Shown here one piece after another: positions 8,208-15,739 of a stretch of DNA of 64,000 nucleotides. The DNA comes from a virus, in IMG/VR virus record IMGVR_UViG_3300018495_000106. The stretch is one strand, 5' to 3'. The notes beneath the pieces are model-generated. The model made no database searches, was not told the DNA's origin, and was given only the letters and a program-made list of their open reading frames with translations. The position numbers and the translations under genes are program-made. How positions within the stretch are numbered: the first letter of the stretch is position 1; each line of letters starts with the position of its first letter.

Positions 8208-8528
8208 ATGGCAAAGGGTGCAGAAGCAAAGGCTAATGTAGTCAAGAAAATCCAAGCTGCTTTTGGAGCAGATTTTGTTGGTGAATATGATAAGAAAGTG
8301 TATGTGTGGGCACAAGAGAACGGCGAGAAAATTCAGATTGCTATTTCTATGACCTGTCCTAAAAATCCAGTAGGTGCAGTTAATCCTGCAGCTTTAGATT
8401 TCGGTGGCGACCTTGATTTTGAAAATATGGGTGCGCCGGTTGTTGCACAGACCTCTTTCGAGCCAGCTGAAATTTCCGATGAAGAAAAGCAGACTGTTGC
8501 AGATTTAATGGCGAGACTTGGTCTATAA
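8208..8528 (+). CDS. hypothetical small protein upstream of YcaO
   Basis: RBS AAAGGAG; possible extended -10 promoter upstream. Confidence 0.55.
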   Translation: MAKGAEAKANVVKKIQAAFGADFVGEYDKKVYVWAQENGEKIQIAISMTCPKNPVGAVNPAALDFGGDLDFENMGAPVVAQTSFEPAEISDEEKQTVADLMARLGL

Positions 8529-8549
8529 TTGAAATTTGGACGAAAGATA

Positions 8550-8590
8550 AGAGGTGTGTGAAGGGATTCACATACCTCTTTAATAGTTTT
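8550..8590 (+). terminator. hairpin terminator (13-bp stem, interrupted U-tract)
   Basis: AGAGGTGTGTGAA-GGGA-TTCACATACCTCT. Confidence 0.5.
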
Positions 8591-8655
8591 GGTTAGAAGT
8601 TAACAATTTATCTATAATGAATTTTATAGTATACAGGAGACAATTCAGCTTTGTC

Positions 8656-8684
8656 TTGACTTAACATAAAATTTATGTTATAAT
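8656..8684 (+). promoter_or_regulatory. consensus promoter (TTGACT-N17-TGTTATAAT)
   Basis: upstream of ycaO. Confidence 0.75.
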
Positions 8685-8707
8685 ATAATTAAAAAGGAAG
8701 GAGTTTT

Positions 8708-12914: not shown

Positions 12915-14358
12915 TGTGATTGTAAATATTCATGACGACAAGGAATTATTCCAGCAAGAACAAGATAAATTATTGCAAGTTGTATTAGATAAACGATTCT
13001 TCTCTACTTGGAGACCAAATAATAGTGCGATGGATGTACCTCGTGGGCATGTGGAGTTATTTATTACTTCTCAGTGTAACCAAAAGTGTGAGTATTGTTA
13101 TTTGGTTAAATATCCTGACCTTTATCCAAAGGAATTTTTAAACCCAGAGCAAATCAAAGAAAACCTTAAAATTTTTTATGACTGGGTTATTGCAAATAAT
13201 TATTGTATTCCTCAGATTGAGTTTTATACTGGCGAAATCTGGCATAGTAAATTTGGAACTGATATCTTAGATATTACTTTTGATTATCTTTTAGCTGGAT
13301 TGCAAGTGCGCCAGTTCATGATTCCTTCTAACTGCAGTTTTCTTAAAGACCGTAAGAGAGCTGCAATTATTCAAGGATATATTGACAAGTTTAGAGCTAT
13401 TGGTGTTCCACTTATTTTCTCTATCTCTATTGATGGAAAGTATGTAGATAATGATATTCGCCCTAATGTCAATGCGAAAATTACTCATGATGATGACTTT
13501 TATGATATGGCGTTTTCATTTTCTAAGCACAATGGATTTGGCTTCCATCCGATGATTGCGGCAGCCTCTATTGAAATGTGGCCAGAGAATTATAAGTGGT
13601 GGAAAGAAATGCTAAAGAAATATGGCTTGACTCTTGGAGAAGTTATGATGCTTGAAGTAAGAAATGGAGACTGGACTCCAGAGAAAATTCAAGCGTTCTT
13701 AGATTTTGAGGATATTTTAATTGATGGTCTTTTAGAGCGTAATGATAATGACCCAATTAAAGCTTGTATTTTCGGTTTTGGTATTAACCAAACTTATTAT
13801 GATAAGAATTTGTTAGCTATCGAAGACGAAGAAATGAGTGCATATACGCCTTATCATTTAGCAGAAACTGATGAATTTCTTGGATGTACGTTACAAAATA
13901 CTTTAACAGTTCGTTTAGGTGATTTAGCAATTTGCCCTTGCCATAGAACTGCTTATAATAAAAATCTATATGGTTGGTTTACTGTTGAAAATGGGGCAAT
14001 TACAGGTATTAAATCTAATAATCCTCATCAGGCTATTAGAAATCTAATGGTAAATAACCATGTGGGAACTTTAGGTTGCGACTCTTGTTTCTATAATAGA
14101 TATTGTATGGGTGGATGCCCTGGTCAACAAATGGAAAAATTTAATGACCCATATCATTTAGACCCTACGGTTTGCAACTTCTTAAAGAGTAAGATTAAGC
14201 ATTTGATTAAACGTTACCATGATTTAGGATTTTTGGATTGGTTAAAAGAAAACATTTCTCCTTACCATGTATTTTATCCAAATGCGCAGAATCTTATTCG
14301 TTTATATGAAAATGTAATGGAGGAGGAGCGTCATGAGCGAATGGCAGAATTTAGATAA
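12907..14358 (+). CDS. radical SAM enzyme with SPASM-type C-terminal Cys cluster
   Basis: CNQKCEYC motif; CPCH...GCDSCFYNRYCMGGCPG C-terminal cluster; overlaps upstream gene. Confidence 0.75.
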   Translation: MDNVIVNIHDDKELFQQEQDKLLQVVLDKRFFSTWRPNNSAMDVPRGHVELFITSQCNQKCEYCYLVKYPDLYPKEFLNPEQIKENLKIFYDWVIANNYCIPQIEFYTGEIWHSKFGTDILDITFDYLLAGLQVRQFMIPSNCSFLKDRKRAAIIQGYIDKFRAIGVPLIFSISIDGKYVDNDIRPNVNAKITHDDDFYDMAFSFSKHNGFGFHPMIAAASIEMWPENYKWWKEMLKKYGLTLGEVMMLEVRNGDWTPEKIQAFLDFEDILIDGLLERNDNDPIKACIFGFGINQTYYDKNLLAIEDEEMSAYTPYHLAETDEFLGCTLQNTLTVRLGDLAICPCHRTAYNKNLYGWFTVENGAITGIKSNNPHQAIRNLMVNNHVGTLGCDSCFYNRYCMGGCPGQQMEKFNDPYHLDPTVCNFLKSKIKHLIKRYHDLGFLDWLKENISPYHVFYPNAQNLIRLYENVMEEERHERMAEFR

Positions 14359-14728
14359 AATTTTTGTTGACGATGCCTATGGCATTGGTAATGCTGATGA
14401 AAATTTTACTATTATCACAAAAGAATGGCTTGCTAATGGTGGAAAGATTGATTCTTTCACTCAAGAAATTATTAAGCCAGTAGACAATATCGCTGTTATG
14501 GCAGAAGATATGGAAGGTACAACTCCTCTTCTTTGGAAAGAAAGATTGATTTTCTATTCCGATGGCAGAATGGAAAGATACTTCTTGTATAATAGATATC
14601 CTTCTGATATAATTCGCACAAGGGTTAATAGCCGTCCAGCTTTAACCCCTTGGGCACAAACCATTATGCAAGAGGCAATTTATGAAGAGAGATGTCGAGT
14701 TGAAGATTTGCAAAACGAAGATTGGTAA
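14333..14728 (+). CDS. hypothetical protein
   Basis: overlaps upstream stop; same operon. Confidence 0.55.
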   Translation: MSEWQNLDKIFVDDAYGIGNADENFTIITKEWLANGGKIDSFTQEIIKPVDNIAVMAEDMEGTTPLLWKERLIFYSDGRMERYFLYNRYPSDIIRTRVNSRPALTPWAQTIMQEAIYEERCRVEDLQNEDW

Positions 14729-14729
14729 A

Positions 14730-14758
14730 TTGATTTTTAATTAAAAATATGGTATAAT
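14730..14758 (+). promoter_or_regulatory. consensus promoter
   Basis: TTGATT-N17-TGgTATAAT. Confidence 0.75.
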
Positions 14759-14788
14759 TATAGTAATAAGAGAAAAAGGAGATTTTTT

Positions 14789-15739
14789 ATGGCGAACTTT
14801 TATTGTCCAGGCTTTTATGAAAATGCCGTTATGTATAAAAGACTCTTATGGTTCCAAAAGTATTATCCACAGTGTTGGGTAGATGGCGCAAAAATTACTC
14901 ATATTTTTGGTTGTTTCCCTAACTGTATTTGGAATGGAGGGTCTACTTGGATTCAATATCCGCCCGCAAAACCTATCATGAGAAATGTATTCCAGTGGTA
15001 TAAAGACCAAGGTATTATTATTCAGTTAACTTTTACTAATCCTATGTTACAGGAAACTGATGTATACGACAGATATGCTAATTGCATTTTAGATGTTGCG
15101 GTTGAGATTTTAGGATATGAGCAATTAGAAGTATTAGTTTCTGCTCAGTGTCTTGAGGATTATATTCGCAATAAATATCCAAAAGCCAATGTAACAAGAA
15201 GTATTGTTGGTGCAACTGGCTGCGAAAACACTTGTAGCACAATTGAAGATTATGTCGCGCTATTGGATAAATATCCTCGTATTGTTGTACCTCGTAAAAA
15301 GGTTAATGATATTGATTTTATTCAAGGCTTTCCTCAGGAATTAAAGCATCGAGTAGAGTTACTTTGTACAGATGCCTGTCCCATTGATTGCCCTCGAATT
15401 TATCAGCATTATACTAAATTAGGTATGGAACAGTTATGGGAAGATGTTTCTTTTGAAGAAGTAATTTGCACGGGTTTTGCAAAAGATAATCCTTTCCATG
15501 AAGCAACTTATTCTCAATATAAGATTACTCCACCTGAAATTGCGGCATATGAAGCTCTTGGATGGTCAGAGTTCAAAATTAGCGGTCGTATTTCTACTGC
15601 GGCAGCTCCTTTGAGATTGGTACCATATTTAATTAAGCCAGAATTTTGGGAAGATGTTTATATCAACATTTATTTCGATATTTTTGGTGATAATAGCTAT
15701 TTCCCAGACTATGATTTCTGGTCAGATTCAACTATTTAA
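14789..15739 (+). CDS. hypothetical Cys-containing protein
   Basis: RBS AAAGGAG; promoter at 14730. Confidence 0.6.
   Translation: MANFYCPGFYENAVMYKRLLWFQKYYPQCWVDGAKITHIFGCFPNCIWNGGSTWIQYPPAKPIMRNVFQWYKDQGIIIQLTFTNPMLQETDVYDRYANCILDVAVEILGYEQLEVLVSAQCLEDYIRNKYPKANVTRSIVGATGCENTCSTIEDYVALLDKYPRIVVPRKKVNDIDFIQGFPQELKHRVELLCTDACPIDCPRIYQHYTKLGMEQLWEDVSFEEVICTGFAKDNPFHEATYSQYKITPPEIAAYEALGWSEFKISGRISTAAAPLRLVPYLIKPEFWEDVYINIYFDIFGDNSYFPDYDFWSDSTI

Follow-up and report, generated by a model that had tools for sequence, protein, structure and literature searches.

A 64,000-nucleotide stretch of viral DNA, IMG/VR record IMGVR_UViG_3300018495_000106 (called the window in this text, at its full length), raises the question of what a phage could produce with a YcaO protein, two radical S-adenosylmethionine (rSAM) enzymes and a protein built of short repeats, all encoded in one cassette at positions 8708-15739. 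The first-pass annotation of this locus, made from the letters alone, proposed a precursor of RiPPs, peptides that are made by the ribosome and modified after translation. The computational analysis described here keeps the RiPP-like logic and changes the expected product. The locus is probably, though far from certainly, a phage-encoded, leader-guided, RiPP-like protein-modification cassette, whose product is a modified, probably cross-linked, hypervariable protein rather than a set of small peptides. Leader-guided modification is proposed because four features occur together: a constant N-terminal handle, a hypervariable core, a fixed pair of enzymes and a set of swappable tailoring genes.

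Cassette content and conservation

The cassette consists of six genes on the plus strand, separated by gaps of 4-60 nucleotides (nt) or joined by overlaps of 8 and 26 nt. They encode, in this order, the YcaO protein (601 aa), the repeat protein (334 aa), the two rSAM enzymes, termed rSAM-A (458 aa) and rSAM-B (483 aa), a 131-aa partner and a 316-aa U32-like protein (ORF7). All open reading frames (ORFs) named in the first-pass annotation are present on this strand at the positions it gave.

Conservation was surveyed in 60 sources, the window and 59 further loci, with purpose-built hidden Markov models (HMMs) and with the codon TAG read as sense where needed; rSAM-B served as the anchor, by which 39 IMG/VR loci and 15 loci of genome collections were fetched. 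The constant core in the 59 loci is formed by the repeat protein, rSAM-A, rSAM-B and the small partner, and rSAM-A is immediately followed by rSAM-B in every case. HMM detection finds, in 31 loci, that the ORF directly upstream of rSAM-A joins the N-terminal domain of the repeat protein (N-domain) to a low-complexity tail; a relaxed composition criterion raises this to 46 distinct cassettes, and further divergent ones are visible by eye. The whole order from the YcaO to the U32-like gene is kept in two relatives, L002 and L060, and recurs in L001, which ends before the last gene; such recurrence lies well outside what chance would give. In L003, and likewise in L005, two complete cassettes adjoin each other and differ in their tails. 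The first-pass claim that a YcaO, a substrate-like repeat protein and two rSAM enzymes form one conserved phage unit is thus borne out. The general RiPP logic also holds, since the precursor gene stands beside modifying enzymes encoded immediately downstream and combines a conserved, leader-like N-terminal part with a variable core.

The placing of the YcaO protein at the heart of the system had to be given up. It is found in only 14 of the 60 sources, and the invariant core consists of the two rSAM enzymes and the repeat protein. Every source with a YcaO gene also has the repeat protein, apart from L050, a truncated contig. The other accessory genes are those of U32-like proteins (33 of the 60 sources, often as tandem pairs) and of glycosyltransferases of family 2 (GT2; 11 of 60). 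In this pattern, YcaO, U32-like and GT2 proteins resemble tailoring enzymes added to a fixed core. Among the 60 sources, the cassette core includes no conserved protease or exporter.

The repeat protein and its family

The repeat protein (10518-11522, plus strand) has a non-repetitive N-terminal part of about 110 aa followed by repeats rich in Ser, Asn, Thr, Cys and His, as the first-pass annotation had described. The repeats themselves are not the heptad-like units that it reported. Their true period is 9 residues (27 nt), with an autocorrelation of 0.40 at lag 9 vs 0.14 at lag 7, and the tandem-repeat program TRF also returns a period of 27. Along the protein, the leader-like N-domain (aa 1-112, positions 10518-10853) ends in Cys105 and Asn107. 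It is followed by a first block of about nine nonamers of the form T-C-S-N-[GS]-x-[HN]-[SG]-N (aa 124-204, 10887-11129), a non-repeat linker beginning GARGNGLKHHSSRFYTDQCSYQYKSNGTC... (aa 205-240, 11130-11237), whose NGLK..QCSYQY motif is kept in L001 and L002, and a second block of about nine nonamers of the form [NQ]-T-C-S-N-S-A-H-S (aa 241-321, 11238-11480). The protein closes with a conserved C-terminal tail, NVTVIDIMNSYKP, and the stop codon (11481-11522). The repeats are imperfect, with 62-73% matches at the DNA level, and the nonamers have no flanking cleavage motifs.

In an AlphaFold2 (AF2) model based on an alignment of 62 sequences, the N-domain is predicted to be a bundle of three helices (aa 12-30, 47-62 and 87-100) with a predicted local distance difference test score (pLDDT) of 85-98. 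A strand directly after the last helix (aa 108-111) pairs with a strand in the C-terminal tail (aa 323-326), the block having a pLDDT of 83, and the repeat region between them is poorly modelled (pLDDT about 40). As the two strands pair in the model, the prediction is of a repeat region that loops out from a clamp at its base. The model had no significant fold match in the PDB or among the BFVD predicted viral structures, and the sequence belongs to no Pfam, NCBIfam or PHROG family.

An exhaustive search with the N-domain profile gave 361 clusters at 50% identity, of which 132 reach E<=1e-10. Among the 150 matches listed of the 361 clusters, the N-domain is placed, with few exceptions, at the extreme N-terminus of proteins of 140-373 aa. 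The family proteins are about 140-470 aa long with tails of 50-370 aa; at least one relative, L038, has a short precursor of 105 aa with a core of about 30 aa. Cys105 is invariant in 62 sequences and Asn107 nearly so. Between the window and L001, the N-domain region is 86% identical and the whole proteins measure 334 and 370 aa. The tails are hypervariable low-complexity sequences which differ in length, period and composition, with 14% Asn, 13.5% Ser, 12% Gly and 10.6% Thr overall. Two flavours are distinguished. The first consists of N/S/G/T with variable Cys and His and ends in the motif xIDI(L/T/R/K/M)(N/C), found in 71 members. The second consists of repeats of Ser and aromatic residues, e.g., SYRGSYDS or GFSFSGDR. 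Neither Cys nor His is conserved across the family: related tails contain 0-2% Cys, some of them beside a YcaO, so that Cys is not the conserved target. An example is the second cassette of L003, in which heptads of NSNGTS(T/R) with 2% Cys adjoin a YcaO gene.

Three further searches concern this family. A pattern scan of IMG/VR with the N-domain gave no confirmed match, and its alignment is too variable to scan the genome collection in this way. The protein P0259 (2519 aa), with nine partial matches to the N-domain profile, turned out to be an unrelated giant repeat protein and is not informative. Finally, in their composition (N/S/G/T/C/H/Y/D) the tails look like what adenine mutagenesis by diversity-generating retroelements produces. 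Such an origin was rejected because the window holds no template-like copy and the variation is explained by turnover of the 27-nt repeats; blastn of the repeat region vs the rest of the window gave chance matches only (E>=1.5), no search being aimed at a reverse transcriptase.

The 27-nt repeats also yield long spurious ORFs in other frames, in the window at 10807-11151 and 11206-11487 and, in addition, on the antisense strand. At L060 1089-1850 a metagenome gene caller took two out-of-frame ORFs in place of the true 370-aa repeat gene. Such mis-framing, together with the recoding of TAG, which fragments genes under the standard code, helps to explain why the family has been overlooked. The practical warning is that standard pipelines miss this family and that it is under-represented in protein databases.

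The radical SAM pair

The enzyme rSAM-A (11538-12914, plus strand) carries the CxxxCxxC motif at C23, C27 and C30, and rSAM-B (12907-14358, plus strand), whose start overlaps the rSAM-A gene by 8 nt, carries it at C57, C61 and C64. The motif is invariant in 53 homologs of rSAM-A and 57 of rSAM-B. The two proteins are remotely related paralogs (hhalign E 3e-5 over 280 columns), and they differ in the cysteines which follow. In rSAM-B a full SPASM set of seven cysteines (C327, C345, C391, C394, C400, C404 and C423) is invariant or present in 98% of the 57 homologs. In rSAM-A exactly three further cysteines (C294, C312 and C417) are invariant in the 53 homologs. As the best NCBIfam match of rSAM-A is also a twitch-domain family (N_Twi_rSAM, 55 bits), it is assigned one auxiliary cluster of the twitch type. 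The first-pass description of two SPASM-type enzymes therefore stands for the radical SAM motif of both and, as regards the full SPASM domain, only for rSAM-B.

Family searches point, for both enzymes, to maturases of peptides. Many rSAM peptide maturases match rSAM-A at E 1e-9 to 1e-5, the NCBIfam matches of the pair reach E 6e-15, and phrog_1802, annotated as 'radical SAM', matches rSAM-A at E 1e-9 and rSAM-B at E 1e-16. The informative NCBIfam matches of the two, all weak, are to CcpM, GggB, PapB, HxsB, DynA, CXXX-repeat, SCIFF and QhpD peptide maturases. The nearest solved chain to rSAM-B by sequence is the SCIFF thioether maturase CteB (5wgg), at E 0.019 in the SPASM region. Neither enzyme matched a methylthiotransferase family in NCBIfam. 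A PADLOC search for known defence systems matched only the CxxxCxxC regions (residues 18-92 and 49-112) to pVip, with 29 and 18 bits, and was rejected as an assignment.

YcaO, the small partner and the U32-like protein

The stand-alone YcaO protein (8708-10513, plus strand) is identified by Pfam family PF02624 with 106.9 bits vs a cut-off of 25.7, the match covering profile positions 1-324 of 325. Its N-terminal 300 aa form the ATP-binding YcaO domain and the C-terminal 300 aa are found only in a phage-associated subfamily. The closest solved relative is E. coli YcaO (PDB 4q84), which aligns at E 1.4e-21 over residues 12-297 only and is of about the same length (586 aa). In this alignment S, E and E are kept in SGYSEMFER, and SELFER stands opposite SEVFER, so that both ATP-binding blocks quoted in the first-pass annotation align with blocks of 4q84 and its YcaO assignment and length comparison are confirmed. 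In E. coli YcaO the residues S71, E75 and E78 and the SE.FER block are reportedly (Dunbar et al. 2014) responsible for binding ATP and Mg.

The type of YcaO is less easily assigned. The best NCBIfam match, YcaO_for_S12 (NF040716), gives 117.4 bits vs an equivalog cut-off of 700 and extends over profile positions 6-295 of 571 only. The protein fails the SagD-type family of thiazole/oxazole-modified microcins (TIGR03604; 34.9 bits vs 219) and the McrA thioamidation type (42 bits vs 365), and its C-terminus, ...KAYFSVKEE, has no Pro-rich PxPxP ending of the SagD type. As the first-pass annotation had noted, an E1-like (Ocin-ThiF), TfuA or dehydrogenase partner is missing: none was found among the seven ORFs of the cassette region by Pfam and NCBIfam scans. 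About 90 full-length relatives of 560-610 aa at E<1e-30, mostly on metagenomic contigs up to 200 kb, form a distinct subfamily. The exact sequence is not on record in the look-up made, and a pattern scan of IMG/VR with this protein gave no confirmed match.

The small partner (131 aa, 14333-14728, plus strand) overlaps the end of the rSAM-B gene by 26 nt. Its position is nearly universal: in nearly all loci a small gene overlaps or abuts the rSAM-B stop codon, in two unrelated forms which track the flavour of the tail.

The last cassette gene (14789-15739, plus strand) had been listed as one of two further small genes attached to the operon. It encodes a protein of 316 aa with a TIM-barrel fold of the U32 type, a conserved Cys triad and a K-I-S-G-R motif; among its homologs C197 and C227 are invariant and C201 is present in 98% of the sequences. 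This protein, ORF7, is probably an Fe-S enzyme. U32 proteins with conserved cysteines are [4Fe-4S] enzymes, and very few are established as proteases (PMC6747719). Two examples of their chemistry are UbiU/UbiV, a heterodimer of paralogs which performs O2-independent hydroxylation of an aromatic ring, and RlhA, which hydroxylates a cytidine in 23S rRNA (PMC6747719). Cassettes with a U32-like gene have more aromatic tails (15.8% vs 8.7% Y/F/W), and this association is a hint only, because the loci are not independent and many are near-duplicates.

Proposed mechanism and its alternatives

The analysis shows which genes are present, how they are conserved and arranged, their cofactor-binding motifs and the folds predicted for their products; from these we infer which protein is the substrate, what chemistry it undergoes, what becomes of the leader and what role the cassette may have. 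The substrate would be the 334-aa repeat protein, and its three-helix N-domain (aa 1-110) would serve as a constant recognition handle. It is taken as the rSAM substrate because of the constant handle, the variable core and the fixed enzyme pair, and because rSAM enzymes which act iteratively on repeat cores are known. The part to be modified would be the region of about 210 aa which holds the two blocks of TCSN(G/S)xH(S/G)(N/Q) nonamers and is looped by the beta-clamp of aa 108-111 and the C-terminal strand. The core machinery is envisaged as the translationally coupled rSAM-A, with one auxiliary cluster, and rSAM-B, with two, together with the small partner. By comparison with SPASM and twitch peptide maturases, the two rSAM enzymes would abstract hydrogen through a 5'-deoxyadenosyl radical and install the same cross-link or side-chain change repeatedly along the repeats. 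In the window, the candidates are thioethers from the Cys sulfur to carbon and/or links from His to carbon. Two optional enzymes could add to this: YcaO might activate backbone amides with ATP, leading to an azoline, thioamide or amidine, and the U32-like protein would most likely perform an O2-independent hydroxylation and, less likely, proteolysis. The end product would most likely be the whole or a large part of the modified protein, freed at lysis, and might act as a binding or inhibitory molecule in the competition among bacteria or phages. Its hypervariability and its proposed release at lysis suggest a molecule acting on other cells or phages.

Several observations weigh against this reading. 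The Pfam Radical_SAM profile (PF04055) scores 19.9 bits on rSAM-A and 21.0 on rSAM-B, both under the cut-off of 29.5, and the SPASM profile TIGR04085 scores 25.0 on rSAM-B, just under 27, so that for the rSAM enzymes the profile check proposed in the first-pass annotation falls short of its thresholds; support comes instead from the NCBIfam and phrog_1802 matches and, for the SPASM domain, from the seven cysteines. A RiPP recognition element was not detected, and the rSAM enzymes have no N-terminal extension long enough to hold one. Sequence searches gave no sign of one in the 131-aa partner, which has no Pfam match even at E<=1, none in NCBIfam or PHROG, and none by profile among PDB sequences. 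The clamp is drawn from a single AF2 model in which the loop has a pLDDT of about 40, and the aromatic-tail subfamily has no C-terminal motif. No one residue type is conserved across the family tails, which makes a single common reaction hard to name. ORF7 is called U32-like at the fold level only, because neither it nor the three relatives scanned match PF01136 (peptidase U32) and its cysteines are spaced as (C193)x3C197x3C201x25C227, unlike the CX6CX15CX3/4C of the family; its profile also had no match among PDB sequences. Genes resembling tail fibres precede the cassette in L005, L012, L014 and L055, and lysis genes do so in L004, so that a role in the virion is possible. All of the support is computational rather than biochemical.

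The alternative closest to the first-pass annotation is a classical multi-core RiPP, in which the leader is cut off and about 18 nonamers are freed as small azoline or thioether peptides. We consider it unlikely, although the layout of leader and core with adjacent maturases fits it and L038, with its short core, would suit it. Proteases are the point on which it turns. A dedicated protease, WprP, reportedly cleaves the repeat cores of its own system uniformly; the U32 family was first described as peptidases (5d88 description); and an M28/M20-like peptidase is encoded just upstream of the cassette (5570-6625). Against these, no protease or exporter is kept with the core, L002 does not have the upstream peptidase, 27 of the 60 sources do without the U32-like gene, and the U32 proteins which conserve the cysteines are Fe-S hydroxylases with few proven proteases among them (PMC6747719). 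The imperfect repeats offer no flanking cleavage motifs, and the conserved linker and the C-terminal strand, predicted to pair with the strand after the leader, describe a defined protein architecture. A modified protein is favoured over peptides because of this predicted clamp and linker, the imperfect repeats and the missing core protease and exporter; together with the folded three-helix N-domain, they make such a product at least as likely as the peptides first proposed.

Very unlikely is that the repeat protein is a structural, fibre-like virion protein or a glycosylated surface protein, whose rSAM neighbourhood would be meaningless or whose enzymes would harden a virion component. The low-complexity repeats of Ser, Asn, Gly and Thr do resemble fibre or mucin-like sequences, the cassette follows an endolysin in L004 in addition to the four loci with tail-fibre-like genes, GT2 glycosyltransferases accompany it in 11 sources, and the in-frame TAG codons of recoded relatives would agree with late genes. 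The repeat protein has no similarity to virion proteins in PHROG, Pfam, the PDB or BFVD, and no collagen-type Gly-X-Y or tail-fibre repeats, which the first-pass annotation had named as the signs of such a protein; its repeat unit has nine residues, many of them Ser and Asn. The strict adjacency to the rSAM pair over dozens of divergent loci cannot be chance, the window cassette lies among non-structural genes beside a bank of tRNA genes, and the version in which the enzymes harden the virion, a possible one, would be a special case of leader-guided protein modification.

That the enzymes act on the host translation apparatus, by ribosomal protein modification of the RimO/YcaO kind or by tRNA or rRNA modification with the rSAM and U32 proteins, is more unlikely still: in the family and PDB searches YcaO finds its best match in the E. 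coli accessory protein of the S12-methylthiotransferase, the U32 family includes the rRNA hydroxylase RlhA and the tRNA hydroxylase TrhP, and the window cassette directly precedes 37 tRNA genes, but the YcaO match reaches only 117 of 700 bits in the N-terminal half, the rSAM enzymes match SPASM and twitch peptide maturases and no methylthiotransferase family, YcaO is absent in 46 of the 60 sources and otherwise accompanied by the repeat protein (except in the truncated L050), and in other phages the cassette is not beside tRNA genes.

Leader-guided protein modification can be extended to a bolder proposal, which we put forward tentatively and hold to be rather doubtful. It describes a new and widespread class of phage 'RiPP-proteins', in which a helical handle presents a loop of up to about 370 residues to the rSAM pair, with YcaO, U32 and GT2 enzymes being swappable, and the product is a cross-linked, rapidly evolving binding or inhibitory molecule deployed at lysis. 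If true, this would be a new RiPP-like class, in which U32 and stand-alone YcaO enzymes would show a new chemistry directed at protein and phages would have a new kind of weapon or adhesion module. If the leader-guided reading itself is right, phages, apparently mostly of gut Clostridia, would be spending 5-7 kb on oxygen-sensitive Fe-S machinery to chemically rewrite a hypervariable protein. The few phage-borne systems which resemble natural-product pathways would be joined by a large family, with 361 sequence clusters and dozens of viral contigs of 100-200 kb, and its molecule might have a part in the gut in competition between phages and bacteria or among phages. The cassettes would then also offer new enzyme-substrate pairs for radical SAM chemistry on repeat cores and a testable protein substrate context for the poorly understood stand-alone YcaO of the E. 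coli type and U32 Fe-S proteins.

Carriers and genomic neighbourhood

The relatives of the cassette sit on IMG/VR viral contigs of 100-197 kb, and the most fitting reading of the window is a section of a large phage genome, with nearly all of its long ORFs on one strand. The labels of the genome-collection loci are mostly those of gut Clostridia (Lachnospiraceae, Oscillospiraceae, Faecalibacterium, Roseburia, Gemmiger, Clostridium), so that the carriers, as far as the host can be read from bin labels, are apparently phages mostly of gut Clostridia. One isolate record has a cassette, that of Clostridiales Family XIII bacterium PM5-7 (L058; JBNDKG010000001.1, 428,749 bp), apparently within a large provirus. 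Its variant matches L040 (IMGVR_UViG_2940228231_000002, 113,740 bp), and both encode an N-domain protein with an aromatic tail, the rSAM pair, three U32-like proteins and a weak GT2-like match (27 bits). L058 is the only cultivable handle found. Searched by megablast with the cassette and with 40-60 kb of the window, the 50,697 deposited phage records yielded no near relative; in them, tblastn with rSAM-B and with the N-domain found no family member, and YcaO matched only the E. coli-type YcaO of one Escherichia phage record.

The window phage is not recoded at TAG. Relatives which read TAG as sense are L003 (787-11776), L005, L009, L032, L035, L044, L054 and L057. In L003 each cassette gene has 1-9 in-frame TAG codons, apart from one small gene with none, and 8 of the 10 downstream genes checked, including Ro-like, vault-like and SLH protein genes, have no TAG; recoding thus looks specific to a set of genes. 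It follows from this distribution that, in the recoded relatives, cassette expression must coincide with the reading of TAG as sense. In recoded phages in-frame TAG is typical of late genes, and this gives a hint that the cassette is expressed late. In L004, a multi-domain endolysin (lysozyme, peptidase M15, PG_binding and SH3 domains) and a holin-like membrane protein of 99 aa are encoded directly before the cassette (8247-9936).

At its 5' boundary, the window cassette is preceded by an intrinsic-terminator-like hairpin with a 14-bp stem and a T-run (8549-8580, plus strand), which ends a gene of 106 aa (8208-8528), and by a sigma-70-type promoter-like site, TTGACT-17-TATAAT with an extended -10 TG (8656-8684, plus strand). 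The latter agrees with the consensus at 11 of 12 positions and is followed by a strong ribosome-binding site, AAGGAAGGAG, and the YcaO start codon. The promoter which the first-pass annotation placed at 8656 is thereby supported, and the 106-aa ORF falls outside its unit: as the hairpin and the promoter-like site separate it from the cassette, it is regarded as a separate transcription unit. This ORF has no family match in Pfam, NCBIfam or PHROG and is not kept upstream of the cassette in L002. A second promoter-like site, TTGATT-17-TATAAT with TG (14730-14758, plus strand), lies in the 60-nt gap before the U32-like gene. Promoter calls rest on consensus match only, and the whole region is not richer in promoter-like sites than shuffled sequence. 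Near-identical elements stand at 14730-14758, at 15746-15774 (before the tRNA-Gly gene) and at 15934-15962 (before the gene of a cyclic-phosphate-processing receiver domain, or cREC, protein), the last two sharing the sequence TTGATTTTT(T)ATAAAAAATA(A)TGTTATAAT...ATATATGTAA. This recurring element may represent a phage-specific promoter class. A non-coding RNA candidate behind the last of these sites (15960-16130) was rejected, with no Rfam match at E<=1 and a folding z-score of -0.27.

The cassette is followed by a tRNA gene at 15833, the first of a bank of 37 tRNA genes (15833-31170) which together serve all 20 amino acids. A further tRNA-like element of 117 nt (26348-26464), possibly a tRNA with an intron or of some other aberrant form, is reported by Rfam only. 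The window also encodes NAMPT, PIN-PhoH, an RNA ligase, a Ro/TROVE-like protein and a PHROG ATPase, and the first-pass picture of a phage rich in tRNA genes and in genes of nicotinamide adenine dinucleotide metabolism agrees with this inventory. Directly after the cassette is the cREC protein (16151-16504, plus strand; cREC_REC, E 3e-18), which has the same place in the close relative L060 (6355-6678). On the other side are two paralogs of phrog_18912, of unknown function (718-2319 and 6628-8040, plus strand), the second with a Cys-rich, zinc-ribbon-like C-terminus; the M28/M20-like peptidase (plus strand), with CxxC pairs at its C-terminus; and a membrane transporter of 474 aa of the Na/sulfate symporter or CitMHS type (2878-4302, plus strand). 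Neither the paralogs nor the peptidase are conserved with the cassette in L002. The Ro60/TROVE-like RNA-binding protein (32228-33787, plus strand; phrog_850, DUF2828, DUF7788) has counterparts within a few kb of the cassette in L002 (9419-10933), L003 (15745-17277) and L004 (4990-6591), and no Y-RNA-like partner of it was identified. Further along the plus strand, an ORF of 830 aa (48313-50805) has domains of the major vault protein (MVP_shoulder E 1e-26, Vault_3) and a homolog near the cassette of the distant relative L003 (17580-20066), so that a vault-shell-like protein is conserved in the phage lineage, and a protein of 510 aa (59145-60677, plus strand) combines SPFH/Band-7 and flotillin domains.

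Comparison with known systems

Modification of repeat cores by rSAM enzymes is known from several systems, among them freyrasin (PapA/PapB), the CXXX-repeat and the Cys-every-fifth systems. TvgB acts iteratively on the TVGG repeats of TvgA, giving poly-cyclopropylglycine (PMC9062424), and the rSAM cyclophane synthases WprB (of WprA/WprB) and HtkB are likewise reported to be iterative on repeat cores. The TvgA/TvgB, WprA/WprB and triceptide (HtkB/HaaB) systems have a precursor directly upstream of the rSAM gene, consisting of a conserved N-terminal part and a core of short repeats, as in the phage cassette, and the informative family matches of the window enzymes are to such maturases. The cassette differs in the folded three-helix leader of about 105 aa, in the hypervariable core of 50-370 aa, in the constant pairing of twitch and SPASM paralogs, in the recognition element, protease and exporter, none of which was detected, in its large-phage carriers and in equivalog scores that all lie 10-20 times under the cut-offs.

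The HxsABCD system (Haft and Basu, cited in PMC9062424) also joins a repeat precursor, two rSAM enzymes and a small protein. Both window enzymes weakly match HxsB (31.4 and 22 bits vs 370) and rSAM-A also HxsC (15.2 vs 268), but the phage repeats are nonamers, not His-Xaa-Ser tripeptides, and Hxs is in its turn an uncharacterised system. Proteusin, NHLP and Nif11 precursors share with the repeat protein a long structured leader guiding the tailoring of a C-terminal core (PMC10858898, PMC12537861), and rSAM-B weakly matches a Nif11-associated rSAM family. The phage N-domain has no sequence or fold similarity to these known leaders, and its core is much longer and repetitive.

For the accessory enzymes, comparison is made with single proteins. 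E. coli YcaO, the RimO accessory protein, is like the window YcaO stand-alone, of similar length, equipped with the ATP-binding blocks and without an E1-like or TfuA partner, and the window YcaO is encoded next to rSAM enzymes. The window protein differs in its C-terminal half, which is unrelated, and in its neighbours, which are SPASM and twitch enzymes, not methylthiotransferases. The U32 family (Mk0906, 5d88; UbiU/UbiV; RlhA) shares with ORF7 a conserved Cys cluster and a K-I-(S/E)-G-R motif, and the UbiU-UbiV heterodimer recalls the tandem U32-like paralogs of many cassettes. ORF7 differs from the family in the missing PF01136 match, in its Cys spacing and in a presumed protein substrate, which is without precedent there.

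The carriage of such genes by phages is not new in itself. Biosynthetic gene clusters on phage genomes have been surveyed (bioRxiv 10.1101/2020.10.01.322628); they are mostly of the bacteriocin type and on temperate phages, an example being sublancin in the SPbeta prophage, and share with the cassette a cluster of the ribosomal-peptide type on a phage genome. The first-pass statement that a RiPP cluster inside a phage has never been described was hence too broad. The survey mentions neither YcaO nor radical SAM (bioRxiv 10.1101/2020.10.01.322628), and no description of a phage YcaO/rSAM cassette, of this architecture or of this repeat-protein family was found in the RiPP, jumbo-phage and phage natural-product or gene-cluster literature searched. 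The kind of process is already known, namely rSAM-dependent, leader-guided modification of a repeat core; what is unusual is the protein-sized substrate, the pairing of a twitch with a SPASM enzyme and the carriage of the whole by phages.

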